From the IMG/VR virus record IMGVR_UViG_3300021492_000072: a stretch of DNA of 64,000 nucleotides; one strand, written 5' to 3'. Shown here piece by piece: positions 44,295-64,000 of this stretch. Numbering within the stretch: the stretch's first letter is position 1; every line of letters starts with the position of its first letter. The position numbers were made by a program, and so were the translations under genes. The DNA is from a virus. Below the pieces are notes generated by a model. That model made no database searches. It saw nothing but the letters and a program-made list of their open reading frames with translations, and was not told the DNA's origin.

Positions 44295-45317
44295 ATGGAA
44301 AAGTGTGGTATGGTTGTAAAGGTAAAGAACGAAGATAGGTTCTTCGATTCTCTAGCTAAATACCTGTTCTTCAAAGAGTTAAAAAGAGCATACGAGATCA
44401 AGGTTGATGAAAAAGGACGTCCTATTACATTTATTACTAAAAGAGTCAAAGGTAGGCTTAGACACATCCCAATCCCGTTAGAAAGGTTAAGAGAGGAAAA
44501 GCTAAGTGATGCTGGTAAAAGATTGATTGAGATGAATACTATGAGATTGGTAGGACAAAGTGCTAAGATAAACGAGGGTGGGAAGAGCTTTCTCAGGATT
44601 GGAATGAAAGATTTAATAGGTGCGTTGAGTTTTGAAGGAAAGATAGGATCCAGGTTGAGTGAGGTCTGTAAAGCACCGGGAGCGATGGCGTGTGCTGCTA
44701 ATATGATAGGACTGGATTCGTATGATGTGCGTAAGGTGGAATTAAAGAAGGGAGGTAATATAGATTTAGATGCCAAGATATGGAAAGGTGACGTTTCATT
44801 AGGTTTTGTAGGAAGTATTGAGAAAGAAAAAGATAAGTTGGTGATGTATCCTAGGAGGTTGGAGAAGGTTAAAGGTGGTGATGTGGATTGGGCTAAAAGA
44901 GTAGCGCGGGTGTTTAAGAGGAGTGGAGTAGATGAGGTTAAGGTAGCTGCTAGGGGAAAGGCGGATCATGTGTTATTTAGCATGCTGGGGGCGGAGTTTG
45001 AGAATCCAAGAGAGGCGAAGTTATTCACTGCGCTGGCTGTTAGTAAGTTAAAGGGAATGAAATTAGCCCGTGAGTGGCAAGTAAAGAAAATCATGATAAC
45101 TCTAGCGAAAGAACAAACGCAAAGTTTACCCAGGATTTTGGAAATATTTAGAGATACAATGTTCCCTAGAAGGCCGGGGTTCCCCACTACTGGAGAGGCG
45201 CCAGGTACTTATAAAGACTTCAAAAGGCTGTTAGAGTTAATATTCGGCAAGGGAGTCAGCAAGTACAGAATCCCTATGAAGGGAAATAAGCTATTAGACC
45301 TTTTGGTGAGAGGTTAA
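44295..45317 (+). CDS. Basic protein with tag-like FITKRVKGRLRHIPI and a possible degenerate GNAT domain
   Basis: 340-aa ORF; ARVFKRSGVDEVKVAA..FSMLGAEF resembles the GNAT C-terminal pattern. Confidence 0.7.
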   Translation: MEKCGMVVKVKNEDRFFDSLAKYLFFKELKRAYEIKVDEKGRPITFITKRVKGRLRHIPIPLERLREEKLSDAGKRLIEMNTMRLVGQSAKINEGGKSFLRIGMKDLIGALSFEGKIGSRLSEVCKAPGAMACAANMIGLDSYDVRKVELKKGGNIDLDAKIWKGDVSLGFVGSIEKEKDKLVMYPRRLEKVKGGDVDWAKRVARVFKRSGVDEVKVAARGKADHVLFSMLGAEFENPREAKLFTALAVSKLKGMKLAREWQVKKIMITLAKEQTQSLPRILEIFRDTMFPRRPGFPTTGEAPGTYKDFKRLLELIFGKGVSKYRIPMKGNKLLDLLVRG

Positions 45318-45318
45318 G

Positions 45319-46284
45319 GTGTTAGAGTTTATACCACTTAGGAATAGGCAAGGTAAACTATTCTGGATACATGTATCGGAGTTTGAGCCGTGGAGGATTA
45401 AAGATCCCAAGACGTTACAACATATTCTGAACTTATACTTTGGATCCATTACGGTGGATAAGCTGGGAAGGTCTATGCTCACCAGTGATGGTTACGTCTT
45501 TCTGAAAGAAACCTTACCTGATTACCTCTGGAACGAAATAAAGCGTAAGAAGTACAAAAATACTATTGAGGTCTTTAGAGAGGCATCTCATCATCCAAAG
45601 GCTATACACCAGCTTGCTAATGCAATGGGTGATGTTTCCTACTTATCCGACTTCGCGATTAGGAAGGACTACATATTTGCCGAAGGTGGGATGCGTAGGT
45701 TATATAAGGCGGGGATTAGAATCCCATTTGAACCTTTATCCCCAAAATGGATGGTGAGTTCACAGGTTCCAAGAGTTCCAGTGGTCTTTGGGCCCAAGCT
45801 ATTTGGCAGAGAGATGTCAGGAAAGCACCTACAAAAGATATATCACAATTTACTGGTTGAGAGTGGACAAAAGGCTTTTATTGTCAGGCCAGGTCCGAGT
45901 AGTTTCATCACATATGCGAAGCTGGGTGCGAATTATCCAACTAAGAGCGGTAGGAAGTCGCTTGTAAAAGAGATGCAGAGATTAATCCCATACATACGTA
46001 AGTCCGGGCAAGAAAGGGAAACTGATATGCTCATGCATGTTTTAGAAAGATGGAGTGAGGGGGCGGATAATCTACAAAAGCTATATAGGGACACCTTGGA
46101 GTTGGTCAAAAAGAAGGAAATACCAGTTAGTTTGTTCCAGAGGTTTTGGTACCGAATGAGCGCCTTCGAACGTGAACTAAAGTTAGAGATAACCCCCGCT
46201 GTAAAACGTATGTTAAAAGAGGGTACTGTTTCATTCAGTGTAAAACGTTGGTTACGCGCGCCATCTAGTACGCGGTTTCAATAG
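45319..46284 (+). CDS. Hypothetical protein with possible degenerate GNAT domain
   Basis: ESGQKAFIVRPGPSSFITYAKLGANY; start uncertain. Confidence 0.65.
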   Translation: MLEFIPLRNRQGKLFWIHVSEFEPWRIKDPKTLQHILNLYFGSITVDKLGRSMLTSDGYVFLKETLPDYLWNEIKRKKYKNTIEVFREASHHPKAIHQLANAMGDVSYLSDFAIRKDYIFAEGGMRRLYKAGIRIPFEPLSPKWMVSSQVPRVPVVFGPKLFGREMSGKHLQKIYHNLLVESGQKAFIVRPGPSSFITYAKLGANYPTKSGRKSLVKEMQRLIPYIRKSGQERETDMLMHVLERWSEGADNLQKLYRDTLELVKKKEIPVSLFQRFWYRMSAFERELKLEITPAVKRMLKEGTVSFSVKRWLRAPSSTRFQ

Positions 46285-47388
46285 CTTTCTAGGAATCCTC
46301 TTACGATATTTTATACAAATTTCAATAGTGTTCTTGATTTCTTCTTCAAGAGTAATTGAAGGCTTGTAACCAAGGCTGTCTAAGATTCCTTTCTCTACTT
46401 TGTATAAGTCAATGTCTTCTCTTTCAACTCTTGGATTGGGATAGTACTTCATCTTTGTAAAAATACCAAATTCCTCCATTGAGATTCTTTTAACAGTTCT
46501 AGCCAAGTCTTCCAGCCTATAGACTTCCATTAACTGATTAACTAGCCTATACTCTCCACGTTTGGGTGGGTTCTCTAATAACAAACGAAGGCATTGAATG
46601 GAGTCTCTTAAAGGTAGGAAGCCTCTCTTTTGATTCCCCGAACCATAGACGGTTAATGAGACATCTTTAGTCGCAGCTTCGGCGCATAGACGATTGAGAT
46701 AAGTCCCAAACAGTTCATCTGCGTCAAAGCGTGTGAATAAGAGTTCGTCTTTCCCATCTATTTCCTCGGTTAATACACCAAAGACTACACCTTGCATCAC
46801 GTCAGTTACTGTTAATCCCCAGCAGTTGCACGCTAACTCTAGATAAAGAGAGCCTAAGATTTTTGTATCGTGGTAGAAAGAGATTCCTCTACGGGGGTAT
46901 GGTAGGACTTCCTTAAACGGTCCGTAGCTGATTTCCAATCCTTTTTCTGAAATAGGGATGTTAGACGCCGCGTACTCTCCCAAAGTTCCGATTACTATTA
47001 CATGCACATCCATTTTTAATTCTCGTAGAGCCCAAACAAGGTTTAAAGGTCCAATAGTGTTGGTGAACGTAGTTTCAAAGCAGCTATCACGGTCCTTCAT
47101 TGAGTACGGCGCACTAGGTTGATGTGCTAAGTATACAATAGCGTCTGGATCGACTCTACGGAGTACGTCTAAGAAGTGAGGCCAATCAGTTACGTCACAG
47201 ACTTCGAAGCCAATTGATAAGGCGTGAACCCTGTCTTCTACTGACGCAATTGGGGTTATAGACGTTGCGACCTTCCTTCTGAAGAGGTTGTCGATACCAT
47301 AAACCTCGAACCCGCGCGCTACTAAATTCTGCGCTAATGCAAATCCTATAAAACCATCTATACCTGCGATTAGAACCTTACCACGCAT
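46252..47388 (-). CDS. sqdB: UDP-sulfoquinovose synthase (SqdB/SQD1/Agl3 family)
   Basis: GIDGFIG, DNLFRR, QPSAPYSM, GTLGEY, SFYHDTK, QGVVFG, TRFD..FGTYLNR, LTVYGSGNQKRGF. Confidence 0.9.
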   Translation of the reverse strand: MRGKVLIAGIDGFIGFALAQNLVARGFEVYGIDNLFRRKVATSITPIASVEDRVHALSIGFEVCDVTDWPHFLDVLRRVDPDAIVYLAHQPSAPYSMKDRDSCFETTFTNTIGPLNLVWALRELKMDVHVIVIGTLGEYAASNIPISEKGLEISYGPFKEVLPYPRRGISFYHDTKILGSLYLELACNCWGLTVTDVMQGVVFGVLTEEIDGKDELLFTRFDADELFGTYLNRLCAEAATKDVSLTVYGSGNQKRGFLPLRDSIQCLRLLLENPPKRGEYRLVNQLMEVYRLEDLARTVKRISMEEFGIFTKMKYYPNPRVEREDIDLYKVEKGILDSLGYKPSITLEEEIKNTIEICIKYRKRIPRKLLKPRTRWRA

Positions 47389-47411
47389 TTTCCTATACCT
47401 CCTAGCGGGAT

Positions 47412-47453
47412 CCCGCGCATATTGCTAAAATATGGCGCAATAACCATATGATA
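47412..47453. promoter_or_regulatory. Dispersed ~42-bp intergenic element, copy 2
   Basis: Matches 31241-31282. Confidence 0.6.
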
Positions 47454-47462
47454 TGAAGCATG

Positions 47463-49132: not shown

Positions 49133-49689
49133 TTAAAGTACCTCATTGGTAAAAATGCATATGGTGTTGCTAGAGAAATTTCACCTAAACTTACAGGTTC
49201 TGACTTCTTTGCGCGCTCGGTTCTTGTTACACACCTAAGATTCCCAGCACTGGTTTCCGACACTTCAACTTCATTCGTCTCTATTGAGCCCTTAGGACGA
49301 ACGCGTGATTTTATTTCACCTCCGGCATAGCACCATACATCTACAACCTTGTTATCTTTTGTAACAAGACCAACTAGGTTGTTTGAGGTAAGTTTAGCTT
49401 CTTGAGGTGGGAACTTTATAGCACCTTCTTCCATGTCCTCTTCCGCTACACACACGTAGTCAGGTGAAAGGGCTTCTGTCAGTTCAGCTAACGTTGCATT
49501 TGCTGGCTGAATGTAATCAGGTTCAGTGAACAACTTTCCACGGTATATAGTAGGTTTGGACCGCAGGATGCCCTTGCTTATTCGTCTCTTAACCGTGTCG
49601 TCAGGCGTCGACACGAATAAGCTGCCAAAGGTAATAGTCCATATTCCAACTACTCGGTTGGATTTTACTTCAATAATGAAACCTCTCAT
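49108..49689 (-). CDS. Hypothetical protein with two internally similar halves
   Basis: NRVVGIW..TLAEL vs NKVVDVW..SLGEI. Confidence 0.65.
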   Translation of the reverse strand: MRGFIIEVKSNRVVGIWTITFGSLFVSTPDDTVKRRISKGILRSKPTIYRGKLFTEPDYIQPANATLAELTEALSPDYVCVAEEDMEEGAIKFPPQEAKLTSNNLVGLVTKDNKVVDVWCYAGGEIKSRVRPKGSIETNEVEVSETSAGNLRCVTRTERAKKSEPVSLGEISLATPYAFLPMRYFKWAEKRKS

Positions 49690-52600
49690 TATTCACCCTC
49701 CTTCTTTAGGAGTTTGAGGAGGTATTGTTCTTCAGGACGGCGTTTTGGCGCCACCCAGACAATCCCCACCTCCTTCTTAAACCATTCAAACGCGGCTTCC
49801 CTCCATTTACCACCTAACACGATGCCTCTTAAGTGGCGCCACACGTTAAATTTTGCGTCTTCGCTCCACCCGTGCTTATTTAGGTAAGCAAAGATTTTGT
49901 TCGCAACCGGCACCTGCTGTTCTTCCGATGTCAGTTTTGTCACAAACTTGGCGACTAACTTACGAAAGTCTTTACCCTTTGCCGCTTCTTGGAATTTGAT
50001 AAACCACTTTTCACGCTTAGCAGCTTCGATGACTTTCTTTTTCTTCTCCCATGGCCTTTTCAAAGTCCATTTGACTTTCATTTCTTCTTCGAACCATTTA
50101 TACGCATCTTGTCTTGGTTTACCACCAGACTGAATGTTTTTCAGCCGCCGCCATACGTTGTACATTGCATCCTTACTCCAGCCTTGTCTGTCCAAGTAGG
50201 CGAAGATTTTGTTCACTATGAGCTCACACTGTTCCTCAGGCGCAAGTCTCGCTACGAACTCAACAACTACGTTGTGAAAGTCCTTACCTTTAGTGTCCGC
50301 CAAGAACTCGAATAACCTCTTATATTTTTCTCTTTCGCGTTTTAGAATTGCTGCAGTAACGGGCCTCTTCCGTGCTTCCTCTAATGCTTTTAGCCTCGAA
50401 AACTCCGTCATTTTATTCAGTTGCTTACTAAATCCTTGCACGTCAATTACTCCCTCTTTCTCTAACTCCAGTAATAAACCCTTGTCACTCCTAGACGCGG
50501 CTATAATCCTACGAATCATCATGCCAACCGTATCCCAGTTCTGTGCTTCTGTGGATGCCATAACGGTCAAAGTGGCTTCTATTGCTTCCCTTATTTGATC
50601 AGGGTTGAGCTTCAGCTTTTTCATCGCTTCAACAAACTCTTTCCACATCCCTTCGGTCTTGAGCTTAGCGAGGGGTTTTACCGCTACTGCCTTCATTAAA
50701 GATAAGAAGTAATCGTAAAGTTCGGGTGAACTGTACCGCAAGATTGTGGGCTTGGTTACAAATGTCGCGAATAATTCAGCGAAGGATTCTGCTGGGTCTG
50801 AGATAGCGTACACCCGAAGAGGGATAGATAAGTTTTTCGTAATCTCAGGTAACCTGTCTTGGAGCGGTTTGATGAGAGTTTCGCGTATATACGACGAACT
50901 AGCCAGTAAAGCTGCTTGAAGCTGGCCCTTCTGTTCCTTCTCTACTAAGTACTCAAGAAAACCAATTAATTTTGCTACTTCTTTTTCACTCTTTGCATAT
51001 AAAGTAGCCCTTTCTACAAAGGGATACAGGATCCCATAGAGGTAGACCTGTCCGTAGGTGGACCCCAGTAATGTGTTGTACATAACGTGGCGTTCGAAGA
51101 TGTGGTGACCTAACTCATGAAGTATTTGGTAGAGGTTGGGAGTAGCCACAATAGACGAGTTGAATGATTCCATAAACTTCTCATACCCGCGTCCCAAGAT
51201 GTACGACGCGTTAAATGTTGAAGTAGTCTTACTAAATCCAATATAGTTGAGTCCTTCCCATATAGCTGGGACTCTTAAGAAGGGGTAGGTTTCTAACAGG
51301 GACCGGATGTATGGTTCGATCTTTTCGTCGACGTAGGGAATTCTTTTCATAATCGCATCAACACTTGTTACAGCGGGCCAAGGCCGCCCCAGTCTCTCAA
51401 GTGACTTGCCAACCCATTTTTTGTAAGAACTTGGTGTCCAAAGTGTTGATGCTAGGAAGTCTTCAAACGCTACTTTACCAGGTATTTCCCTATGAGGTGT
51501 GAAGATAACCGCGCGAAACATGTGTTTAAAGAACAACATCGGATCCACATACGCTTCTTTAGGAAAGTCGAGTGGTAAGGTGAACTTCTCAAAAGGCGCC
51601 AAGTTCCCAAACTTCCACGCCTCTTCCAATTTAATGTACGGTTCTTTGCCGAGTTCTATACCAACCTTTCTGAACACTTTCCACAAGCGAGTTTCCCACA
51701 CATCCTCACGAGCCTTTTGCATTATAGCTGCGAGCTGGGCTGTAATGGGTGAGTATGGGTCGAGAAAGTTGTTCCTAAACATTAGGTTCTCAACAACTGC
51801 GTCAACAAACGCACTTCTTACTGTTGAATGTGTTGCTTTTGCAGGGATGTACAGCGTGTTTTCCAGCGGGTTATAATATGGTGTCTCAGCCGCCGTGGTT
51901 GTTATTTTGTCAAACAAAGCAAAGTAAGCAGGTTCACGTAATCGAGGTTCTTTTAGTAAAATATCCCGGATTTTCTTATCGACATGATCAAGCGCGCCTA
52001 TTGCCAGCAGCTCGGACTTGGGTAAGTGCAGGCCTCTTACTGGGATGACTTTTTGGAGCCAATCTACTTCAAACCTGGTCTCCTCTATATCGACAGGAAT
52101 TAACACGCACCGACATTTACCGTTACATCTTACTCCCCTAGCTTTGTAAGGCTCACCGCAGCCCGGCCACCTACCTATAAACTCAAGTTCAGTTTGCGAG
52201 AAGACTTTACCGTGCATCTCCCGACAGTCTTGGCACATGTTCTCATCGCCAGTGCCAACCCATTTGTAATAGATGGTTTTGCCTTTTAGGGTAAAAAATC
52301 GAGTTACAGCCTGGAGGGGTAAGTGTGTAAGGTAACCAACGAACGCACCCGCCGCCAGGAAGCTTAGGAGTAACTTATGTAAATCATCTCTTACTTTGTC
52401 CCAATCTCTCTTTTCTGCGTCTTTCTTGACTTCTTGATATTTTGAAGTCCACTGACGAGTCATATAGTCGTTAATCTTCTTTAATGAACGTACAGTTTCA
52501 GCGTCGACATAATCTTTGTCATAAGAAGGCCAGTACCTATCTACCCAGTAGTACCCTGTCTGAAGAGCGTCAGGGGTCACATCTTTCAAGGCGTTCTGAA

Positions 52601-54014
52601 TTTGCGTGTAGAACCATTTGTCCAATGGATCGAGTGTAGGGGTAACGTCTGCTCTGACTAGCATGAACTTTTCGCACAGTTTCTCTGTGAGCTCCTCATG
52701 TACTTTCCTGAGCTTTTTGGTTAGCTTCATTGAAAGAGTCATCCGCTTGGATACAAAGTCAGCTGTCTTAGGGTCACTAATCAGGTTCAAGTTACGTACG
52801 CTTTCTAGATATTCTAACTCGGCAGCTCTTTTTATCTCTTGAAACGGGTCCTCTGATTCAGCTCGAGCTGGGGTCACAACTATAGGTTCTTGGGTAGGGG
52901 GTTTTGCTTCCCCACCAGGAGGCTTCGTCCCACCAACAGGTGTGAGACCTTGTGGTTGCAAGATAGTGAGTGTGTCACCACCTTGAGCGGGTGGTAAGTG
53001 CAGGAATGCCCTTGCTTCGTTAGGTGAAATAAGCCCAGACCTCGCAGCTAGTAGCAACTCTGATATAGTATGAGCGGGGGGTATTTTGAATCTTATATTG
53101 ATACCGTAAGGGCGGAGAAAGTGATTGAGTTGATCTTGGATAGCTGTTACAATATGAGGTGTGTAGGTCGAATACAATAAAGGTCGCGCGGTTTGCCTAC
53201 CTAAACTATCTCCAGGATTGGAAAAACCAAACGCTGAACGTACCAGCCAATCCATTCGGTCTAAGAAGGAGGTTATGAGTTGAACGTCTAGTTGTTTTAC
53301 TATGTCAATCCACTCGCCTCTACCAGCACCCCAAAGAATTGGCACTTTAGTTGACTGTTCTTGAACTAAGTTGGTTAAGTCTGCCTGTAGTTTTTCTATT
53401 ACCTCCTTTCCTACGTCCTCTTGCACTACGAAAACACCAATTGGTGGCCTTCCTTTCTTGTGCATTCGCTGGAGTGAGTAAACCAAATTAGTGATCTCGT
53501 AAGTTAGAGACTCAATGATAGATAAGGATCCAATAGTGTAGGTCCTCTTAACCCCAGCTATAACAATAACCTCGTCTGGTTTGAATTCAAATTTTTTACC
53601 GTTGACCTCCTGAATGTATCCTAAGAGAACCCCATCTTTTCTAAACACAGGAGCGAACGTGCCCGCGTCTCTTGCGGTAAAACTTTTTAGCTGAGATCCA
53701 AGCGTGAATACAGGTAATATAACACCTTTGTTGACGACAAGCATGTCAACAACACATGCTTGGAGAACTTCCTTAAATGTCTCACCTGTGGGACCTACTC
53801 CCTCAAAAAGAGCGGAGATTACTCCCTTCTTAAATGGATGAGACACTTTCACTTCAAAAGGGAGCCCAGCGATCGTTGTCGCAATTTGATCAACACACCT
53901 TCTTATTGTGTTAGTGTCCCTATATATCTGTCTCAAGACCGAAGCTTGTAAAGAAGTTGTGTATGACCACTGGATTGATGTGTCAAAAGACGTCACTCCC
54001 TTCAACTTATCCAT
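49689..54014 (-). CDS. Portal protein fused to a MuF-like domain, zincin metallopeptidase domain(s) and a duplicated C-terminal domain
   Basis: Portal: CVDQIATTIAGLP, FKPDEVI, SPNEAR..L.P..GGD. MuF: KW..GD..MCQDC..HGK..CRC. Zincin: HELGH..YA..DPAESFAE..PELYDYF. Two ~75-aa KGKDF..NKIFAYL..GWS repeats. Confidence 0.88.
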   Translation of the reverse strand: MDKLKGVTSFDTSIQWSYTTSLQASVLRQIYRDTNTIRRCVDQIATTIAGLPFEVKVSHPFKKGVISALFEGVGPTGETFKEVLQACVVDMLVVNKGVILPVFTLGSQLKSFTARDAGTFAPVFRKDGVLLGYIQEVNGKKFEFKPDEVIVIAGVKRTYTIGSLSIIESLTYEITNLVYSLQRMHKKGRPPIGVFVVQEDVGKEVIEKLQADLTNLVQEQSTKVPILWGAGRGEWIDIVKQLDVQLITSFLDRMDWLVRSAFGFSNPGDSLGRQTARPLLYSTYTPHIVTAIQDQLNHFLRPYGINIRFKIPPAHTISELLLAARSGLISPNEARAFLHLPPAQGGDTLTILQPQGLTPVGGTKPPGGEAKPPTQEPIVVTPARAESEDPFQEIKRAAELEYLESVRNLNLISDPKTADFVSKRMTLSMKLTKKLRKVHEELTEKLCEKFMLVRADVTPTLDPLDKWFYTQIQNALKDVTPDALQTGYYWVDRYWPSYDKDYVDAETVRSLKKINDYMTRQWTSKYQEVKKDAEKRDWDKVRDDLHKLLLSFLAAGAFVGYLTHLPLQAVTRFFTLKGKTIYYKWVGTGDENMCQDCREMHGKVFSQTELEFIGRWPGCGEPYKARGVRCNGKCRCVLIPVDIEETRFEVDWLQKVIPVRGLHLPKSELLAIGALDHVDKKIRDILLKEPRLREPAYFALFDKITTTAAETPYYNPLENTLYIPAKATHSTVRSAFVDAVVENLMFRNNFLDPYSPITAQLAAIMQKAREDVWETRLWKVFRKVGIELGKEPYIKLEEAWKFGNLAPFEKFTLPLDFPKEAYVDPMLFFKHMFRAVIFTPHREIPGKVAFEDFLASTLWTPSSYKKWVGKSLERLGRPWPAVTSVDAIMKRIPYVDEKIEPYIRSLLETYPFLRVPAIWEGLNYIGFSKTTSTFNASYILGRGYEKFMESFNSSIVATPNLYQILHELGHHIFERHVMYNTLLGSTYGQVYLYGILYPFVERATLYAKSEKEVAKLIGFLEYLVEKEQKGQLQAALLASSSYIRETLIKPLQDRLPEITKNLSIPLRVYAISDPAESFAELFATFVTKPTILRYSSPELYDYFLSLMKAVAVKPLAKLKTEGMWKEFVEAMKKLKLNPDQIREAIEATLTVMASTEAQNWDTVGMMIRRIIAASRSDKGLLLELEKEGVIDVQGFSKQLNKMTEFSRLKALEEARKRPVTAAILKREREKYKRLFEFLADTKGKDFHNVVVEFVARLAPEEQCELIVNKIFAYLDRQGWSKDAMYNVWRRLKNIQSGGKPRQDAYKWFEEEMKVKWTLKRPWEKKKKVIEAAKREKWFIKFQEAAKGKDFRKLVAKFVTKLTSEEQQVPVANKIFAYLNKHGWSEDAKFNVWRHLRGIVLGGKWREAAFEWFKKEVGIVWVAPKRRPEEQYLLKLLKKEGE

Positions 54015-54029
54015 ATAAATCTCCTGAAA

Positions 54030-54116: not shown

Positions 54117-54686
54117 ATGTTGCCCTTCAAGATTAAGCGACCATACATAGCTTTTGTGGGGTCAGCAGTGACCTCGCTTGTCAGTCACGATCTAGATGTC
54201 ATGTTTTTTACACTACAGCTTAAAGATGATGTGGTAGCACAAAAGTGCATCAAAATGCTATCACGCTATCTTCCAACCCGAACTCATTACATCGAGGCTA
54301 GCTATATCACTCCTTTTTCGCCTTACGTCCCACTGTACGACCTTGTCGCTATGCCTTACGAATGGACACATAAACGTTACGCACCCCTCTACCCAAAGAG
54401 TGCAAAGGGCCCGTACATCTCTATCAGTACGCGTCATCTTCACCAAAAAGCACCTCGGCGGCTTGTAGTTTGGTTAGGGTGTGTGCGCTACTTGAAACCT
54501 AAGCATACTTTTTACGTACCAAAAGAGTTTAACATGTACTACTATGTCCCTCTGTACATCCGTCTAACACGAATGTTTCCCATCAATAAAAGACCAGTTG
54601 TTTCAAAAGCAGATCCGCCCCAAGGAGCGCTTGCAGTGTACAATTTAGTGCTGGAAAAACAACCTTACCGCAAGGTAGAAATGTGA
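54117..54686 (+). CDS. Pol-beta-superfamily nucleotidyltransferase-like protein
   Basis: IAFVGSAV......DLDV (hGS..DhD); second half is a degenerate repeat (PLYDLV / AVYNLV). Confidence 0.5.
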   Translation: MLPFKIKRPYIAFVGSAVTSLVSHDLDVMFFTLQLKDDVVAQKCIKMLSRYLPTRTHYIEASYITPFSPYVPLYDLVAMPYEWTHKRYAPLYPKSAKGPYISISTRHLHQKAPRRLVVWLGCVRYLKPKHTFYVPKEFNMYYYVPLYIRLTRMFPINKRPVVSKADPPQGALAVYNLVLEKQPYRKVEM

Positions 54687-56005
54687 TGAGTAGTGTCGTA
54701 GACGAACTCTTTGGTTCACTCCCACCGGGCTGGAGAGTTGCCCACTTATGTTCGGCATGTAAGTACTTTAAACCCAAAACTTTCACATGCTCAGCATTCC
54801 CTGAGGGGATCCCAAGTGACATAATAGAAGGCTTTATGCCGCACACTAATGTGTTTCGGGGTCAAGTAGGGGACTACGTGTTTGAGCCAAAAACGGACTT
54901 TAAACTGTCAGAGCTCTTTGGGGTAACTGAAGACTTAACCCGCCGAGTTTTCAGACCAAAAGAGGACATCATAAAGTGGATAACATATAAAGGACGTAGA
55001 ATTCCTATTTTCAAAAAACGCCCGCCTACCAAGTCATACAAAGCCCTGGGCCAGCTTTTAACGGCTGTAAGCGGAGTTACACTTGAAGCATCCTTCCAAG
55101 CCATAAAAAGGTTCGCCAGGTTTCTAGAGAAGAAAGGCGCGGAGTGGATAACCGTAGACGATCCTATTTGGAGAAGACATGTGAAAAGAATTGAGGATTA
55201 CTTCCCCCTCCGTGATGTGGGGTATTATAAAACTAATGGTGATATGTACCTACCCCAAATAATGCGCGTTCATAGGACGTTACGGAAGCTCGAAAAGCGG
55301 TTCCCAGGGATATTATCCGGTGTGCGTATAACATGCGTCCCTCAAGGTAGAACTCCTAGAACGAAAGCCTTTGCTACTATAGACAGAGCGCACTTGGAAG
55401 GCGGGGCCCTTCTCAAAAGTCCTAAGTTTGACGATCTTTATTTTGGCAAAATCTTTAAGCACGCCGGGATTGTAAAAGAACACACAACTTACAGCCAGAT
55501 ACGGTCTGCGTATTGGATTCCTGAAACGCATTTAAGCGACCTAGAAAACTTGAGCCTTTATACTGAATATTTTAAGCGTCGCTTTGGAGGTATAGAGCCT
55601 CCCTTGGTGGCTTTTGTATCCTCAAAATACACAGCTACCTGTTACCCTTCCATGAATCACATTGTTCACGAATTTGGTCACATATTTCACAACAAACACA
55701 ACAAGCTTAGAGAGTTTATGCTTGACGTATACGCACCCTACTTAGGGAGGTGCATTAAAGCGGGTTTTGACAAATTCCCGCTCCAGCCGATGTCTGGACG
55801 TGCAAAATTACCGCGTCTCACAGCACTATTCCAAGTAGATACCAAATTCAGAAGCGCGGTTTACACTCCTTATTCGTTAGTCGACCCATTCGAAGGCTAC
55901 GCTGAGGCATTTAAAGGGTACATCATCCATCCACAGATTCTAAAGCGCAAGTGGCCCGAAGCGTATGAGTTCTTTCGAAAAATAGAAGAACAAGGTTTAA
56001 GTTAA
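54683..56005 (+). CDS. Cys-rich N-domain + WIT tag + zincin metallopeptidase
   Basis: CSAC..CSAFPEGIP..H; KWITYKGRRIPI; HEFGH..YS..DPFEGYAEAF..PEAYEFF. Confidence 0.75.
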   Translation: MMSSVVDELFGSLPPGWRVAHLCSACKYFKPKTFTCSAFPEGIPSDIIEGFMPHTNVFRGQVGDYVFEPKTDFKLSELFGVTEDLTRRVFRPKEDIIKWITYKGRRIPIFKKRPPTKSYKALGQLLTAVSGVTLEASFQAIKRFARFLEKKGAEWITVDDPIWRRHVKRIEDYFPLRDVGYYKTNGDMYLPQIMRVHRTLRKLEKRFPGILSGVRITCVPQGRTPRTKAFATIDRAHLEGGALLKSPKFDDLYFGKIFKHAGIVKEHTTYSQIRSAYWIPETHLSDLENLSLYTEYFKRRFGGIEPPLVAFVSSKYTATCYPSMNHIVHEFGHIFHNKHNKLREFMLDVYAPYLGRCIKAGFDKFPLQPMSGRAKLPRLTALFQVDTKFRSAVYTPYSLVDPFEGYAEAFKGYIIHPQILKRKWPEAYEFFRKIEEQGLS

Positions 56006-56046: not shown

Positions 56047-57021
56047 ATGGAACGTGTTGTCTTCTTCGTGACGCGAAAGCCCAAGTTCGCCCCCAGTCCT
56101 TTCTACCTAGAAGGACGCAGGCCAACCGACAAGTATTTATGGGATCCAATTATTGACCTACTTGAGCGTAAAGTCGTAACTTGCCCAGACGGAAAACCAG
56201 GTCATTGGGTGACATTACCTGGAGGCCGTAAGGTTTGTATCCCAGAGTCGTATTGGCGGAAGAAAGCACTTACTGCGGGTGTAACTGCGGGTACGGTTAC
56301 TGCTGCTGTTACAGCTGCTACGCTCGCAGCGTCAGCGCGGGTTCGGGCTTTTGTTCGTGGTCTTCATTTCACCCCCGAAGGTGCGATACAGCCGCTATTG
56401 GGGCGACGCGGTCTGAACTTTATACTAAAAAGCCCCGATGTTGTGAGTCGATCTTTTCGCGCCGCTGCTCTGACTGGATTTAAAGTGCGACGTTTTGGGT
56501 ATTATGAGTATAGGGGTGTGAGGGGTTTGATGATCGATGGGTCGCTAAAGAATTTTCCAGAGTCCAAGTTCTTGTACGCCACAACGAAAGATCCAGATGT
56601 GCTATGGGCCGGATTGATTTCTATTCCAAAGGCATCGCGTAAGGCATCACGTGACCTCTTTAGAGGTGTCTTTGACTTAACGCGCGCGAGCGGTGCGTCA
56701 AAAATACGATTCATAGCAGGACTTGAAAATGGATCATCAATGTGGGCACGTTTAGGTGGTAAGTGGGTCGACAAGGGTGCTGAAAATGCGTGTAAGCGAG
56801 CAATCTTAGAGCGGCGTAGAAGCATTGGCTACCCCGCTGACTTAGACAGACTCATCACCGAAGCACGAACCCCAAAAGAGTTAGTACAAAAATTGGATGA
56901 GAGGTTGGGTAAATCAGGCACACGCAGACTTCTAAGAAATGTTGAATGGTGGGGGGAACTCGACTTGAAAGATCCTCAAGTCAGGTCCTTTTTATTAAAG
57001 TTAACAGGACAGAAGTTGTGA
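56047..57021 (+). CDS. Tagged GNAT-like protein
   Basis: CPDGKPGHWVTLPGGRKVC, Ala/Thr hydrophobic run, then RASGASKIRFIAGLENGSSMWARLG. Confidence 0.6.
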   Translation: MERVVFFVTRKPKFAPSPFYLEGRRPTDKYLWDPIIDLLERKVVTCPDGKPGHWVTLPGGRKVCIPESYWRKKALTAGVTAGTVTAAVTAATLAASARVRAFVRGLHFTPEGAIQPLLGRRGLNFILKSPDVVSRSFRAAALTGFKVRRFGYYEYRGVRGLMIDGSLKNFPESKFLYATTKDPDVLWAGLISIPKASRKASRDLFRGVFDLTRASGASKIRFIAGLENGSSMWARLGGKWVDKGAENACKRAILERRRSIGYPADLDRLITEARTPKELVQKLDERLGKSGTRRLLRNVEWWGELDLKDPQVRSFLLKLTGQKL

Positions 57022-57940: not shown

Positions 57941-59026
57941 GTGAGAGCTATGTCGTTTTCGCGGTTTGAAAATGGGTTATTCCAAGCAACAGGTCAGTTT
58001 ATTGCATCGGCTGACACTAAACCGTTTAAGGACTTCGCGAAGCAAGGTGAGTTAATAGTTGCGGGTTACGCTACAACTTTCGACGTTGGGCTGGAAGGAG
58101 CTGTCATCGCGAGGGACGCGTTAAATGAAGAGGATTTGAAGCAACGCCCGACTTTGCTGTTCAACCACGACCAGAATCGCCCCATCGGACGTGTTGTAAG
58201 CTCTAAGGTTGATGATAAGGGCCTTTTCATAGTTGGTGTTATTGATAGTACTGAAAAGGAACTTCAACAGAAAATCATGTCTGGTACGCTTTCTCGTTTC
58301 TCAATCAGGGGCCGGATAATGCGCTCACATGCTGAATGGAGGAAGGACCTTCAGAAGAATATAGACGTAATTGATGAGTTAAAGACTTTAGAAGTATCTG
58401 TTGTTTCGGTACCCGCTGTTGCAGAGGCCGAAATTCAAAAATGGTATCTGCAACGTAATTTTAACGAAGGAGGTGATAGTATGAGTGAACAAAGAGACGT
58501 TGAGGCAAAGGACATCACGCGCGACACTGAACTCCCAGAAGAGGATGAGTTTGTGCTTGAAGACGATGGAACAATTGAGTTATTGCTGGGGCTAGATGAG
58601 CGAGTTAATGACTTGGTTGACAAGATTAGTACTTTTGAAGCGGCTGCTAATGACCTTAAGGCAGTCATGGAGAAGTTGAGCGCAATCGATAAGAAGATTG
58701 ATGAGGTACTCAAAAAGTTGGAGAAGTATCCATATCCATATCCAGCTAAGAGAGACGCTGAAGAGTCAGCTGACCAATCAGAGCAGGGAGAAGGAGATCA
58801 GGAGAGACAGGAGTCCACTAATCCACTTGAGGAGATTCAGAAGTCTATCCAACGCTTGGCTGACGAAGTAAAGTCGATAAAGGAATCTCCTACTATAAAG
58901 GGGGAGAAGGAGGCTGGAAAGGAAGACGAACTAAAGAGATTTATAGAATCAGAAGAGTACAAGAGCGCACCCCCAACTGACAAGCTGAGGATGTTATACG
59001 ACTTTTTGCAAAAAGGAGGTGAGTAG
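57941..59026 (+). CDS. HK97-type prohead protease fused to scaffold
   Basis: GYA, LFNHD..PIG, FSIRG, EVSVVSVPA; acidic coiled-coil C-terminus with YPYP. Confidence 0.92.
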   Translation: MRAMSFSRFENGLFQATGQFIASADTKPFKDFAKQGELIVAGYATTFDVGLEGAVIARDALNEEDLKQRPTLLFNHDQNRPIGRVVSSKVDDKGLFIVGVIDSTEKELQQKIMSGTLSRFSIRGRIMRSHAEWRKDLQKNIDVIDELKTLEVSVVSVPAVAEAEIQKWYLQRNFNEGGDSMSEQRDVEAKDITRDTELPEEDEFVLEDDGTIELLLGLDERVNDLVDKISTFEAAANDLKAVMEKLSAIDKKIDEVLKKLEKYPYPYPAKRDAEESADQSEQGEGDQERQESTNPLEEIQKSIQRLADEVKSIKESPTIKGEKEAGKEDELKRFIESEEYKSAPPTDKLRMLYDFLQKGGE

Positions 59027-59957
59027 GATGCTAGATTTAAAGCGCGAATTAGTTAGAAGCTTAACCGAAAGTGATATTGCTTCGATCATCCCCAAGGAAG
59101 TAGATAAGATCATCGAGTCCATGGTTGAGCATAAGAATCCTCTTCGTCAGAATCTTCCTCGTAAACCAGGCTCTGGCGCGGGAGTTCCCGTTAACCGGAG
59201 AGACGGCGCTTCAACAGAGCCCAAGTTCTACGGTGACACCGACTCATTCGATGAAAGCACAGGCAGTTACTCTCAGGTTGTGTTTACATACAAGACCATT
59301 GGATGTCAGGGGAAGGTCACTCGTAAGGCACGCGCAATCGGAGCTAACTACGCTGACTTACTGGCCAATGAAATGGAGGAACGGTCCCAAGAGTTCCGTG
59401 ACAAAGAAGAATGGGGATACTTTTGGGGCGATGCAACAGCAAATCCAAAACAGTTTGATGGGTTAGATAAGTTAACCCACAGTGACAATAGATTTGCAGT
59501 CGGTGGAAGTGGTGGTGGCAACTTAACACTTGAGTTAATGGACCAAGCAATTGACGCAGTTCGCGGGACACCTGACATGATCGTGTGCAGTAAAAGAACA
59601 CGTAGGAGAATACGTGCCTTACTTCAAACTCAACAAAGGTTCGTAAATACCACAAAAGTGAAGGGTGGCTTCGAACTCATGAGCTATAATGATATTCCTA
59701 TCTACGTGTCTAACCAAATTCCTGACACTCTTAAGGTTGATACGGACGGGAAGACCATCACTAGCTTAACCGCTGGTACATTGTCAGCTCTCTTTATTTT
59801 GGACACTGAGAAAGTGTATGTGTCCGAGTTAACCCCCCTTACTATTAAACCTCTCGCCAAAACTAGCTCGCAGTTTGACCTCTTTGACATCTACGCTGAC
59901 GAGGTTTTAGTAGTTCGTAATCCATACGCGTGTGCTGAGATTGTAGGAATTGTATAA
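59019..59957 (+). CDS. Major capsid protein (HK97 fold; likely ATG 59028)
   Basis: Follows the protease; IPKEVD..I, EE..F.GD....QFDGLDKL, YNDIPI. Confidence 0.88.
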   Translation: MSRMLDLKRELVRSLTESDIASIIPKEVDKIIESMVEHKNPLRQNLPRKPGSGAGVPVNRRDGASTEPKFYGDTDSFDESTGSYSQVVFTYKTIGCQGKVTRKARAIGANYADLLANEMEERSQEFRDKEEWGYFWGDATANPKQFDGLDKLTHSDNRFAVGGSGGGNLTLELMDQAIDAVRGTPDMIVCSKRTRRRIRALLQTQQRFVNTTKVKGGFELMSYNDIPIYVSNQIPDTLKVDTDGKTITSLTAGTLSALFILDTEKVYVSELTPLTIKPLAKTSSQFDLFDIYADEVLVVRNPYACAEIVGIV

Positions 59958-59969
59958 TAAATCGGAGAG

Positions 59970-59988: not shown

Positions 59989-60013
59989 GTAATGTTAGTG
60001 GGGGAGGTTACTT

Positions 60014-60415
60014 ATGTATAAAATGAAGTACTGTGGGCCGTTTAGTGGTCCAGAATGGACTCTTGCTACTTATCGTGAGGTCATAACTGTAAAAAACGGG
60101 TACTGCACAGTTAAGTACCCGGAAACAGTTCAAACGCTACAACTGCAAGGCTTCAAATTAGTAGAGCAAGACGACACCCCAAAGCCACCACCTCGTCAGA
60201 AGGAATCTATTAAACCAGTAGCAACGCCTCCACCGAGACAAAAGCCGGAGCTGTCTCAAGCTGAAACGAAGATCCTTGAATTGCTTAAAAAAGGTGCAAA
60301 CCTAGGTGCCATAGCGGTTGCTATTAAGTGGAAAAAGTCAAAGATAGAGAATTGGATACGAACTCACAGCAAGCTAGTAGCTGAGGTAGTAAATGCGCCA
60401 AGTTCTGCCAAATAG
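60014..60415 (+). CDS. Hypothetical head-associated protein
   Basis: Position; PPPRQK x2 linker; HTH-like C-terminus. Confidence 0.6.
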   Translation: MYKMKYCGPFSGPEWTLATYREVITVKNGYCTVKYPETVQTLQLQGFKLVEQDDTPKPPPRQKESIKPVATPPPRQKPELSQAETKILELLKKGANLGAIAVAIKWKKSKIENWIRTHSKLVAEVVNAPSSAK

Positions 60416-61211
60416 CCCAATTTCGTTAGCATTCGATTTTGTTTACGCGGGTGTAACGGTTAGCGATGTTGAGGACCCTGTGGTTGAAGTGTACTCCTTC
60501 GCTCAGGCGTTGATGACCGCCGCTGCCTTAACATGGGGTGGGGCTCATTATGAAGCACGTGTTCAAGCACCACAGGAGTTGGGTGTTTACGTAGCAGTAG
60601 CTCACGGTAAGTATAATGGTGACTATATAACAGCCGCTTCACACGAAGCTCTTGAAGTAGTTTCATACGGGGCAGAAGCGCACCACGCGCTTATAACCCT
60701 CAATGAGGTTAAAGAGTACTTGGAATTGACAGACTTTAGCGAAGACGCGTTTCTGCGACTTCTTACCGAGGCGTGCATTAGCAGTGTATTGAACTACCTT
60801 CACATTACAATCGGGCCGCAAACAACAAAAGAGACCTTTCCTGTGTCTGATTGTGCCTCTTGGAGCTTAAACTATTACCCCGTCATTTCAGTGGAACATA
60901 TTAGTGTAGATGGTGTTGAGTTAAGTAGTACAGATTACACATTAAACGCTAATACGGGTACGATTTGGTTCAATGAGTTAGTAAGTGGGGTGCTAGAAGT
61001 TGAGTATACATACGGGCTCACATCTATACCATATGATATGAAGCTCGCGTGCCTCAAGCTAGCAGCTGTGCTTTATAACCTACGAAACACAGAAGGCTAT
61101 TCATCTCGAAGGTTGTTAAGCGTCGCTGAAACATATTTAGCGAGCAGCAAGGCTGATGTCTTTCACGAGATACGTTCTTTACTCGCTCCCTATAAACGGG
61201 TATCACGTTAG
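60393..61211 (+). CDS. Head-tail connector/adaptor with an extra N-terminal beta domain
   Basis: LITLNEVKEYL..D..L, YPVISV, VEYTYG..IPYDMKLA. Confidence 0.8.
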   Translation: MRQVLPNSPISLAFDFVYAGVTVSDVEDPVVEVYSFAQALMTAAALTWGGAHYEARVQAPQELGVYVAVAHGKYNGDYITAASHEALEVVSYGAEAHHALITLNEVKEYLELTDFSEDAFLRLLTEACISSVLNYLHITIGPQTTKETFPVSDCASWSLNYYPVISVEHISVDGVELSSTDYTLNANTGTIWFNELVSGVLEVEYTYGLTSIPYDMKLACLKLAAVLYNLRNTEGYSSRRLLSVAETYLASSKADVFHEIRSLLAPYKRVSR

Positions 61212-61961
61212 AAGTTGGTTTTGGTCAACATATCCCCAATTACGTTGATACATTCTCCACTTTTCTCTCGGCCATCGAAGCATGTCATGAACAATAAGTC
61301 TCTTGGGGTTGACGAAAGTACTAATGTTTGGGTGATATAAGTGGTGAAGTGTTATATCTGCGGCTCCGACCCGGTACCCAAACGCTTCTAGTTTTATCCA
61401 AAACGCGTTATCTTCACCATACTTACCGTAAAAATCTTTCTCTGGCATCCCGCCCACGTGGTTCATTATAGTCTTAGTGATCCACATAGCACCGCCAGCT
61501 GCACCCATTTTCTCTGGTGTGGTGCTACGTATGTAAGGGCCCCCAAGTGACTCTGATTTAAGAAATCGTTCTGTTGCCTCCTTTGACATGTACAAAATAC
61601 GATTCCACGCTGCAGCTGGAGGCCGCGTCTGGGCCAATATGCTTTGATAATTGGGTGGGTAAATGAGATCAGCGTCGGTAAGTAACACGTGTTCAAACGT
61701 GGCCAACTCTTTCACACCTACGTTAAAGGCCCAAGCTCTGTTAAAGGGGTGAAAAGTGAAAACCTTTAGGTACCGAAAGGGTTTGCGGATCCATTCACGG
61801 AAGGCGTTAATGTGGTCATGAATGTACGCTGTGGGGCCTGTCTCAACGATACATATCTCACACCGAGCTGAGCGGGCTAGGGATTTCACACAGAAAGTTA
61901 GGAGTGGAAGTCGTAGTGGGTGGTGTTCATATGGTATAACAATAGAGATTGGGATTGACAC
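61203..61961 (-). CDS. Glycosyltransferase (GT-A; GT2/GT7-C-like), GTG start 61961
   Basis: SIVIPY, FNRAWAFNVG, DAD, GGM.E.F.G.YGED; GGAGG SD; TTGCGA-17-TAGTCT promoter. Confidence 0.85.
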   Translation of the reverse strand: MSIPISIVIPYEHHPLRLPLLTFCVKSLARSARCEICIVETGPTAYIHDHINAFREWIRKPFRYLKVFTFHPFNRAWAFNVGVKELATFEHVLLTDADLIYPPNYQSILAQTRPPAAAWNRILYMSKEATERFLKSESLGGPYIRSTTPEKMGAAGGAMWITKTIMNHVGGMPEKDFYGKYGEDNAFWIKLEAFGYRVGAADITLHHLYHPNISTFVNPKRLIVHDMLRWPREKWRMYQRNWGYVDQNQLLT

Positions 61962-62036
61962 GCTTCCTCCTTTGATATAGACTACACTTATGATACCAAA
62001 CTCGCAAGACATTGACAAGTTTGAAAGACAAGGTTA

Positions 62037-62444
62037 ATGGCAACCACACAAGCTTTATTAAGTGAAACAGACTTTCCACAGGCAACGGTTGATGTCTTTT
62101 ATAACAGTGAAGTGCTTGAGAGATGGATATTTGTGGGTGTACAGCAGCAAGGGATCGCGTCTGTTTTGTGGTGGATTACAAGAGGTTACCATCAATTTAC
62201 TGTACTTCTTCCCCTTGCGCAATTGTACCTCCTACATCATATCAGAACGCTGCGAATCAGAGTACCTGCCCGACAAATCTGGACAATAAAGCGCGAACAT
62301 GGTATCACTATTTACCCCACTCTTCAGTTCTACACAAGCGCGGGCAAAGTTGCTGAATTACGCGGCTGTGGATTTAACTTCCAAGAGTTGAAGAGTGTGG
62401 TAGTCAACCACTTGACCCCGGGGGTGAGCTATGGGAACTACTAG
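62037..62444 (+). CDS. Hypothetical protein
   Basis: ORF between the glycosyltransferase and holin. Confidence 0.5.
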   Translation: MATTQALLSETDFPQATVDVFYNSEVLERWIFVGVQQQGIASVLWWITRGYHQFTVLLPLAQLYLLHHIRTLRIRVPARQIWTIKREHGITIYPTLQFYTSAGKVAELRGCGFNFQELKSVVVNHLTPGVSYGNY

Positions 62445-62919
62445 TAGTGTTTTCAAAAAAAGGAGGTTCCCATTGTACAGTGTACTTTATTACAGAGGCC
62501 AGCTTACTACAGATTTCACATTTAAGTCAGTCGCTTCAGGGCTTTTATATGCTCTTTTATGGCTGTTTGGTGATGTCAACGACGCTGTCATTGCTCTACT
62601 AGCATTAATGACTCTTGACGTTATATTAGGTTTGTCAGCCGCTATTAAATACCATGATGTCTCTTCAGACAAACTACGGCAAGGTGCGGTAAAGTTTTTA
62701 TTGTATTTTGTGTTGATCATAGCCGCCAACTGTGTTGACAAGGTTGTAGCTCTTATACCGCTTATGAGCCAAATAGTACAGATCAGGAGTTTCACTATGA
62801 TTTATCTAGCGGTATCTGAAGGGATTAGTGTCCTTGAGAATCTTTCATCACTTGGTGTGGCTGTGCCTAAAGTGATGCTCAAAAGACTCCGCCGGTTCAA
62901 GCAAAGCATGGAGAGGTAA
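62431..62919 (+). CDS. Phage holin (holin_4_1-like)
   Basis: Three hydrophobic segments; D..LG..AA..SS....G..K; E.ISVLENL..LGV.VP. Confidence 0.85.
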   Translation: MGTTSSVFKKRRFPLYSVLYYRGQLTTDFTFKSVASGLLYALLWLFGDVNDAVIALLALMTLDVILGLSAAIKYHDVSSDKLRQGAVKFLLYFVLIIAANCVDKVVALIPLMSQIVQIRSFTMIYLAVSEGISVLENLSSLGVAVPKVMLKRLRRFKQSMER

Positions 62920-64000
62920 ATGGCACGGATTATAATGTGTCCTGACAACAAACCAGGGACATGGATTACGCTAAAAGAAACAGGAAGACGCGTTTGTGTT
63001 CATTACATCAAAAAGAATGGTAGGTGGGAGAGGATCTCAGCAGCTATACCGTCAGCGAAAGTGTTAGGTGGTGTTACATTAGCAGCTATAGCCGCCGCGA
63101 TACTACGAAGGAAGCCACCGTTGATTAAGGACATCCGAAAAGTTGCCGTGATTCACGGAAAAGCTGAGTACGCGACTGATAAGTGGTACCAAGCTATAAT
63201 GAGTGCGTGGATGGGGATGAAATCGATCCCTCCTGTAACTCCTAGTGCAAAACCACCTAAGTTACTGAAAACCGCTGCTTTAATATACACACCACATCCA
63301 GGAGCAACTGCAGTGAAGGCCGAGAAGATTATTGGTCATAGAGAAATGATGAAGTTGATCAGCGACAAGTTTGAATTCTCGTTTCTCTTCCACAAACACC
63401 CAGAGTATCACCTGGACACCTATCTGGCGTCCAACTTCAAGAACGTAGATGAAATGAGGAATTACTTCGCTTCGGTAGGTAAATCCTTTATATTGAAACC
63501 GAGGTTTGGGTCGCTTGGGACTCTTAAAGACTTTCCTAACGGTGAATGGTCAAACAAAGCAATCGAAAAATATATCAAGTCTTATGGTGCTGATGATGTA
63601 GTTGTACAGGAGCTAGTACCCGTTGCAAACGAGTTTCGGGTACATGTGGTGAATGGAAAAGTTTACGCTGTAATGCACAGATGGGGCCCACCAGGAGGAC
63701 TCGGAAAAGTTTGGCGTGAACATATTCCGTTTGGGCATATTGTGTTTCCAGTCTGGCGTAAGGGTGATATTGTAAAATTCACAGAGAAGGCAATTCAACC
63801 TTGGGGGAAGAACCTTCATGCTGGGTTGGACGTGATCCAACTTCCCGATGGGAGCTATAAGATCTTAGAAGCAAATCCCCTTCCTGCTTCCTTTTTACAT
63901 CCTTACGTATCTAGAAAGTTCCACAGAGCAGTTACTGGCGTGTGGACTGCAGATATACAAGCACTAGCTGTGGTAGGAGGTGCGGTTGGTGCTTGGACTA
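62920..64000 (+). CDS. Tagged RimK-like ATP-grasp ligase (runs off the window end)
   Basis: Not in ORF track. Manual translation: MARIIMCPDNKPGTWITLKETGRRVC..; SDK, FILKPRFGSLG, VVQE, EFRVHVVNGKV, GLDVI, ILEANPLP. Confidence 0.8.
   Translation, partial: MARIIMCPDNKPGTWITLKETGRRVCVHYIKKNGRWERISAAIPSAKVLGGVTLAAIAAAILRRKPPLIKDIRKVAVIHGKAEYATDKWYQAIMSAWMGMKSIPPVTPSAKPPKLLKTAALIYTPHPGATAVKAEKIIGHREMMKLISDKFEFSFLFHKHPEYHLDTYLASNFKNVDEMRNYFASVGKSFILKPRFGSLGTLKDFPNGEWSNKAIEKYIKSYGADDVVVQELVPVANEFRVHVVNGKVYAVMHRWGPPGGLGKVWREHIPFGHIVFPVWRKGDIVKFTEKAIQPWGKNLHAGLDVIQLPDGSYKILEANPLPASFLHPYVSRKFHRAVTGVWTADIQALAVVGGAVGAWT

Follow-up and report, generated by a model that had tools for sequence, protein, structure and literature searches.

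A portable hairpin mini-domain carried by unrelated enzymes of one provirus recurs in portal/MuF head-module proteins of tailed viruses

Why would a GNAT-like protein and an ATP-grasp protein encoded near the head genes of one virus carry the same short peptide segment? This question is raised by IMG/VR virus record IMGVR_UViG_3300021492_000072, of which a stretch of 64,000 nucleotides (the window) was analyzed, with emphasis on positions 44,295 to 64,000. The first-pass annotation of this DNA had singled out five peptides, at 44427, 45325, 54974, 56182, and 62938, and regarded them as an N-terminal tag by which protein-modifying enzymes are loaded into the prohead for co-ejection. Here, we describe this element (the tag, or WVT hairpin) as a real and portable mini-domain of about 30 residues, document its modularity, its spread among viruses, and its link to head modules, and tentatively suggest that it may act as a docking tag.

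All five peptides were present with the sequences and at the coordinates given for them. Homology between the copies at 56182, in a protein of 324 amino acids (aa), and at 62938, in the ATP-grasp protein, was borne out by BLASTP (E value of 3e-7), and the ~30-residue tag was the sole significant similarity between the two proteins, whose bodies are unrelated, as had been stated. When scored with a tag profile, the GNAT-like protein reached 60 to 71 bits and the ATP-grasp protein 55 to 61 bits, compared with 3 bits for the top background frame of the window. Moreover, the DNA of the two window tags is ~60% identical with many synonymous differences, indicating conservation at the peptide level; this divergence rules out a recent gene conversion between them. 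In the GNAT-like orthologues (five clusters, down to 69% identity), tag residues C46, P47, P51, G52, W54, T56, G60, R61, C64, I65, and P66 are invariant.

Alignment of eight copies from this virus lineage revealed a unit longer than the one noticed earlier, composed of beta1 (VVTC/IVTF), a basic Gly-rich turn, beta2 (xW[VI]TL), a turn, beta3 (G[RK][RK][VI][CF]I[PE]), and a short helix, with the consensus x[VI]T[FYC]xGxxGxW[VI]T[LT]xxG[RK][RK][VI][FC]I[PE]. The first strong copy (56170..56265, forward strand) consists of VVTC (beta1), a PDGKPG turn, HWVTL (beta2), a turn, RKVCIP (beta3), and the short helix, and the second (62920..63021, forward strand) forms the extreme N terminus of the ATP-grasp protein. 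Both are Cys variants, and the Cys pair is peculiar to them, with Thr and Phe at these positions in other copies. The tags are strongly basic (net charge of +4 to +9) and are predicted to fold as a basic three-stranded beta-meander plus a short helix; for the GNAT-like tag, AlphaFold2 (AF2) placed strands at residues 51 to 56 and 62 to 66 and a helix at residues 67 to 71, in models that are of low confidence in the tag.

The Ala-rich hydrophobic run that had been reported behind each strong tag was confirmed as far as its richness in Ala and Gly is concerned, whereas its hydrophobicity proved only weak (means of 1.39 for the GNAT-like protein and of 1.72 and 1.42 for the ATP-grasp protein). 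Taking as the criterion for a transmembrane segment or signal anchor a stretch of ~19 residues that averages ~1.6 or more on the Kyte-Doolittle scale, the Ala/Gly/Thr-rich, weakly hydrophobic run after the first tag (56266..56340, forward strand) lies, at its 19-residue maximum of 1.39, under the usual transmembrane thresholds, and the hydrophobic helix after the second tag (63046..63108, forward strand; 19-mer mean of 1.72) is borderline. The corresponding maxima were 0.96 for the zincin of the window, 1.5 to 1.7 for small tag carriers elsewhere in the virus, and 2.1 to 2.3 for the holin used as a control.

The three other peptides had been offered as looser copies, a claim that was examined by tag-profile scoring of the 134 long frames of the window. 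The site at 44427..44477 (forward strand; TFITKRVKGRLRHIPIP) scored -4.5 bits (rank 55 of 134 frames), and the supposedly weakest copy, at 45325..45375 (forward strand; EFIPLRNRQGKLFWIHV), was outscored by another site in its own protein; both were background-like and are unsupported. The zincin site at 54974..55012 (forward strand; KWITYKGRRIPIF) gave about 0 bits (-0.7 and +0.6 bits, rank 6 of 134 frames) and is a possible degenerate half-tag, plausible on its context only, namely the tagged zincins found elsewhere (P0020 and P0053) and the KWITYQGRRIPI motif retained in the 39%-identical zincin paralogue of the sister provirus G002. The WVT-hairpin profile (G-x-W-[VI]-T-[LT]-x-x-G-[RK]-x-[VI]-[FC]-I, plus flanking strands) was matched significantly by the GNAT-like and ATP-grasp proteins and not by the zincin or the proteins starting at 44295 and 45319. 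A regular-expression enrichment (4 sites observed versus 0.09 expected) was rejected as evidence, because the pattern had been written from those same four sites.

Further copies occur in the same virus. At its full length of 416 aa (as seen in L004 and G002), the ATP-grasp protein bears a second hydrophobic helix and, behind it, another tag at the C terminus, FWVTLETGKKIFIP, so that the complete order is tag, helix, ATP-grasp domain, helix, tag. One tag copy of a related contig of 8.2 kb (L002, positions 7211-7373) is split over two reading frames, GTWIMLKETGKK and then KIFIPLKYTADY, which reflects either a frameshift in the C-terminal tag of the ATP-grasp protein or a misassembly. Two additional copies were confirmed in L027. 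The fibre module contains one or two genes of 118 to 122 aa made up of a tag, two Gly/Ala-rich helices, and a basic tail; in other viruses, the tag-helix unit of these carriers is fused behind a 180-aa domain, which in this virus is encoded by a gene of its own next door. In the replication module, a protein of 86 to 121 aa with a C-terminal tag is encoded between a sigma-like gene and SbcD/SbcC. ESM Atlas searches with the 44295 protein and with the 86-aa carrier returned nothing above chance. The tag is not generally an N-terminal element, as had been supposed, given that it starts at residue 42 in the GNAT-like protein and is elsewhere internal, C-terminal, present at both ends, or repeated. 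Nor is it limited to the head module, since copies are also found in the small membrane-like proteins of the fibre module and in the replication-module protein.

The motif appears to be undescribed. When the tag segments and 19 tag-bearing proteins were scanned against Pfam and PHROG, no family covering it was found, a profile search of the PDB found no matching solved structure, and literature searches by motif string and related concept found no description. The only PDB match, the beta2-turn-beta3 stretch of CXC chemokines (E value of ~0.5, nonsignificant), was rejected as homology and is considered a structural analogy only, and an AbrB- or AP2-like DNA-binding origin was dropped, as no tool supported it. 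Packaged polyvalent effectors and short capsid-targeting peptides are known concepts, and what is so far undescribed is the motif.

To follow the tag beyond this virus, a profile built only from the eight copies of this lineage was searched against 1.84 billion representative proteins, which gave 31 matches at an E value of ≤0.001. They included giants of head modules, namely a protein with three copies flanking an ADP-ribosyltransferase (ART) domain (P0010; E value of 2e-9), a MuF-domain protein with three copies (P0027; E value of 1e-5), and large proteins with two to six copies each (P0014, P0015, P0029, and P0030), alongside small tag-helix proteins and the tagged zincin P0020. With a broader profile, matches were also obtained to a tagged Zeta toxin (P0051), a 2H-phosphoesterase giant (P0052), the second tagged zincin (P0053), and, below significance, proteins with Mu-type-portal-plus-ART, InPase, and CHAP Pfam families; some of its matches were annotated as originating from Bathyarchaeota and Thorarchaeota metagenome-assembled genomes (MAGs). 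When IMG/VR was searched with the motif in its bacterial-phage form, 17 pattern matches were obtained, none of which was confirmed. Phage PB1 lacks the tag; its relative Pa193 supplies Pfam families found in the head module of the tag-bearing contig L030. A weak tblastn match in phage Touem01 was judged on inspection to be due to chance.

The genomic contexts of these proteins are informative. In L017, a portal fusion with two tag copies adjoins a MuF protein with three, and in L023, tags are carried by a portal-MuF protein and by the products of three genes in a row, one of them a Zeta toxin. L030 has the order terminase, portal, ART giant, MuF, two tagged genes, scaffold, capsid, and in L031 a Mu-type portal and PBECR3 precede a 2H-phosphoesterase giant. 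Overall, the contexts span head modules with three portal families and three capsid families, always with a MuF-type gene nearby. In at least four other phage lineages, successive genes beside portal or MuF have nothing but this tag in common. Consecutive or neighboring proteins in L023, L030, and L039 have only the tag region in common, with the L030 proteins sharing a 115-residue leader-plus-tag module on different bodies, indicating that the pattern of unrelated bodies with a shared tag recurs in independent lineages. The wider motif family, G-x-W-V-T-[LI]-x-x-G-x-x-V-F-I, marks portal/MuF head-module proteins of bacterial and archaeal tailed viruses. Within it, genomes have their own flavors, such as KGWVTLHDGRHVFI, EGRWVTLAGGTKVFI, GWWV..GRRIFI, and the Cys variant of this virus, which are more readily explained by coevolution with a partner from the virus's own genome than by a universal target.

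A comparative pattern of this kind would be expected of a docking or address module, considering the unrelated bodies, the genome-specific variants, the repeats in portal/MuF-fused giants, and the proximity to assembly genes. The explanation that we favor, with a probability of roughly 40%, is that the hairpin is a docking tag whose carriers would be built into the head and ejected with the DNA; we infer the docking, the partner, the encapsidation, and the ejection alike. During procapsid assembly, the tag would dock onto a partner encoded by the same virus, for which the portal-MuF protein (49689-54014) is the best candidate. MuF would be the preferred partner because it, and not any portal or capsid family, is common to all lineages. 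The enzymes that may thus be incorporated into the head and exit along with the DNA are a GNAT-fold acyltransferase, a doubly tagged R2K-like ATP-grasp ligase, and perhaps the zincin, and the separate tagged genes of this virus would correspond to what other phages string into one polyvalent protein. The earlier description of the locus as a split polyvalent protein is a fair one by comparison, because a modular tag sits on unrelated enzymes, tag repeats occur in portal/MuF/ART giants, stand-alone genes are tagged, and the zincin has a paralogue. Whether the WVT hairpin could be a general loading tag of bacterial and archaeal tailed viruses, docking on portal/MuF and deciding which proteins are packaged and ejected, seems more doubtful.

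Several observations weigh against docking and head loading. An enrichment of tags near head genes had been proposed as a check. In other phages, tags lie beside portal/MuF; within this virus alone, only 2 of 4 tagged proteins fall in ~12% of the genome, and the head-module enrichment is not significant. One carrier is located in the replication module, and the two fibre-module carriers resemble two-pass membrane proteins with basic tails, in a holin-like layout. Hydrophobic helices adjoining the tag are odd for soluble cargo, and a further loading tag seems redundant in MuF-containing giants. Partial look-alikes in nonphage HlyD-type and phosphatase-type proteins (P0019 and P0026) mean that the core hairpin may arise by convergence. 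Finally, no cultured phage with the tag was found; a tblastn search with tagged proteins yielded no usable match among 50,697 phage records.

Most tags in this lineage adjoin hydrophobic helices, a holin directly precedes the ATP-grasp gene, and the small carriers consist of two helices (Kyte-Doolittle means of 1.5 to 1.7) and a basic tail in a holin-like layout, all of which would suit a tag that, together with its Ala/Gly-rich helix, holds the ATP-grasp ligase and the GNAT-fold transferase at the cell membrane. Beside the holin and the small two-helix proteins, these enzymes might remodel envelope components or control egress, with the tag on the cytoplasmic face binding a common partner or lipid head groups. 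The Cys subvariant common to both enzymes also agrees with a membrane role, as do the operon linkage of R2K ligases to GNAT genes and the frequent annotation of these ligases as membrane proteins (PMC4431377). We nevertheless consider it unlikely, since the helices are weakly hydrophobic (1.39 to 1.72 versus 2.1 to 2.3 for the holin), basic tags (+4 to +9) at both ends of the ATP-grasp protein would, by the positive-inside rule, place the ATP-using domain outside the cell, and Gly/Pro/Lys linkers instead of helices come after the tag in bacterial phages. Somewhat less probable is that a basic beta-sheet with exposed Trp/Phe tethers its carriers to DNA or RNA, for instance to the viral genome, with no role in packaging. 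The net charge of +4 to +9 and the position of one carrier among RNase HII, NrdD, SbcCD, and helicase genes are in line with this idea, DNA binding would be sensible in a head of any kind, since every head contains DNA, and the three-strand-plus-helix layout presumably resembles that of small DNA-binding sheets. However, no significant similarity to any solved DNA-binding domain was found, and the genome-specific flavors argue for a partner that varies among viruses.

Just as improbable is a signal at module boundaries, either a recognition site for zincins or the prohead protease in polyvalent proteins or a conserved junction promoting cassette exchange, comparable to the pre-toxin motifs of polymorphic toxins. 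In the giants, copies are spaced 240 to 470 residues apart, those of P0010 lying on either side of its ART domain, the 115-residue leader-plus-tag module occurs on different L030 bodies, the zincin gene is a cassette swapped between sister viruses, and zincins accompany tagged giants, with zincin processing having been proposed (PMC5512222). Conversely, tags at an extreme N or C terminus, as in the ATP-grasp protein and the small proteins, leave nothing useful to cleave, and the DNA of the two window tags is too diverged for homologous exchange. That the tags are merely stable hairpins that arose by chance or convergence and have no function in common is very improbable: the motif is indeed short, with look-alikes in HlyD-type, PPC-repeat, and phosphatase proteins and a matching chemokine stretch, but the two strong window tags score 55 to 71 bits against a 3-bit background, the E values are significant against 1.84 billion proteins, and the motif is repeatedly linked to portal and MuF neighborhoods. 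An equally slim share is left for an explanation other than any of these.

If the tag does dock its carriers in the head, known systems offer parallels. T4 internal proteins have a capsid targeting sequence, which is a 10- to 20-residue N-terminal peptide removed by the prohead protease, and phage P1 DarB has an N-terminal packaging determinant. Like these, the tag is a short transferable element common to unrelated proteins that are destined, here putatively, for the head. Unlike the T4 sequence, it is a folded hairpin of ~30 residues that is N-terminal, C-terminal, internal, or repeated, instead of being confined to the extreme N terminus, and is conserved across many virus lineages. The cargo-loading peptides of encapsulins lack structure, lie at the C terminus, and bind in a known pocket. 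The tag resembles them as a short conserved element on unrelated enzymes, with lineage-specific variants and a proposed binding inside an HK97-fold shell or to assembly partners, although no sequence similarity exists between them.

The closest repertoire is that of the polyvalent proteins found in phages and in conjugative elements, which likewise comprises zincin, GNAT, ATP-grasp/ligase, ART, Zeta toxin, and 2H phosphoesterase domains (Iyer, Burroughs, Anand, de Souza, and Aravind 2017, PMC5512222); effector giants fused to portal or MuF belong to these proteins. As in these proteins, the zincin and GNAT-like genes are sited in the head module by portal/MuF, and the tag is repeated inside such giants. 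The enzymes here, however, are separate genes, and at least two effector domains are combined only in the portal-MuF-zincin protein. Term searches of Iyer et al. 2017 (PMC5512222) returned no description of this motif. In addition, R2K-clade ATP-grasp ligases linked to GNAT genes have been proposed as protein or peptide modifiers in phage-host conflict (Burroughs, Zhang, and Aravind 2015, PMC4431377). This virus similarly carries an R2K-like ligase and a GNAT-fold enzyme in one genome, but its Pfam scores are below the cutoffs, its two genes lie 6 kb apart and form no single operon, and both enzymes have a tag and a hydrophobic helix, features without description in PMC4431377.

Head-carried or injected proteins are known for few model phages, and a general sequence signature for them is lacking. 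The motif is conserved across lineages with different portal and capsid families, and its carriers are of the enzyme types thought to be injected, i.e., zincins, ADP-ribosyltransferases, Zeta toxins, GNAT enzymes, and ligases. Should it prove to be a loading tag, ejected effectors could be annotated in viromes, including those of archaeal viruses, for which none is known, virion-delivered effectors would become predictable from sequence alone, MuF function would gain a handle, and foreign cargo might be loaded into capsids by adding ~30 residues. Even with another role, this so far unannotated mini-domain connects a large number of orphan proteins of phages.

A single recognizable catalytic domain is present in each of the GNAT-like, ATP-grasp, and zincin proteins. 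For the GNAT-like protein, residues 120 to 320 were modeled by AF2 with a predicted local distance difference test (pLDDT) score of 80 to 90, and nearly all of the top 50 VIA matches of residues 134 to 323 (of 324) were GNAT-fold acyltransferases, with modest Z scores of 5.3 to 7.0. Foldseek gave weak GNAT matches (E value of ~0.04), Pfam gave none, no alignment to a GNAT profile reached significance, and reading of the sequence found no clear acyl-CoA-binding motif (R/Q-x-x-G-x-G/A). The ATP-grasp protein scored below the Pfam cutoffs for R2K_3 (21.4 versus 26.3 bits) and R2K_2 (20.9 versus 26.2 bits), with an E value of 3e-4, and the ATP-grasp-type motifs ILKP..GS.G, QE, and E-A-N are visible in it; an AF2 model of the full protein from a four-sequence alignment was too poor to use (pLDDT of 36). 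Both families are very narrow, with five (GNAT-like) and two (ATP-grasp) homologue clusters among 5.8 billion proteins.

The zincin has the metallopeptidase signature HEFGH (HExxH) and a downstream Glu helix, EGYAEAF. Over its last 65 aa, it shows homology to the zincin domain within the portal-MuF protein of the same virus (E value of 7e-6), making the two paralogues. The zincin gene is an indel, missing at the matching site of the ~97%-identical sister provirus (G002 79019-79037), in which the 39%-identical paralogue is encoded ~60 kb away (G002 16895-18235); this points to an effector gene that moves in a cassette-like manner. Both this zincin and its G002 paralogue have a conserved N-terminal Cys cluster, C-x2-C-x10-C followed by AFP[ED]GIPSD (54740-54810, residues 20 to 45), which weakly matches phrog_33375 and may be a small metal-binding domain.

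The window is a piece of the ~131-kb provirus of an uncultured virus and aligns at ~97% identity with positions 22.6 to 87.0 kb of G002. Five tag copies were found in the nearest cellular genome, the MAG G001, on contigs C10 and C34, both of which match provirus pieces, which suggests that the virus infects, or sits integrated in, the organism of G001. This genome encodes ribosomal protein L21e and lacks L32p, so the host is an archaeon. The tag was absent from all 200 other archaeal genomes of the host's class, the one positive among the 201 being the MAG with the provirus pieces.

In the gene list, two orphan genes start at 44295 and 45319 on the forward strand and are followed on the reverse strand by an SQD1-like epimerase gene and a terminase-like gene. 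The latter precedes the gene for the portal-MuF-zincin polyvalent protein (49689..54014, reverse strand; 1,441 aa), whose Phage_portal and Phage_Mu_F Pfam matches are both below the cutoffs and in which the tag-profile scan found no tag. This protein ends in two tandem helical repeats of ~70 residues (49689-50400, reverse strand; GKDF...NKIFAYL..GWS.DA..NVWR.L), which could serve as docking sites. After a 189-aa gene on the forward strand come the stand-alone zincin (54683..56005, forward strand), which also has a weak ATLF Pfam match, and the 324-aa GNAT-fold protein (56047..57021, forward strand), an open reading frame (ORF) with a 45-aa leader, the tag, an Ala/Gly/Thr-rich helix, and the C-terminal GNAT-fold domain. 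A 317-aa ORF starting at 56946 (forward strand) shares its first 76 bases (56946-57021) with the 3' end of the GNAT-like gene, and its real start is probably more downstream.

Directly 3' of these tagged genes lie, by Pfam-level annotation, an S78 prohead protease-scaffold fusion (57941-59026) and an SU10-type major capsid protein (59019-59957; together 57941..59957, forward strand), so that the zincin and GNAT-like genes sit between the portal-MuF gene and the protease-scaffold/capsid genes, oriented like the latter. A connector gene and a GT2 gene (the latter on the reverse strand) separate the capsid gene from the holin (62431..62919, forward strand; Phage_holin_4_1, E value of 1e-25). Immediately 3' of the holin is the R2K-like ATP-grasp gene (62920..64000, forward strand), which the window end cuts at residue 360 of 416. 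Phage_holin_4_1 is a family typical of bacterial phages and occurs here in an apparently archaeal virus (62431-64000), and the gene after the holin encodes the helix-flanked ATP-grasp enzyme and no recognizable lysin. Finally, a related virus contig (L020, 9106-11250) has an intein-containing NAD-dependent epimerase/dehydratase beside two tagged paralogues, paralleling the epimerase of the window at 46252-47388.

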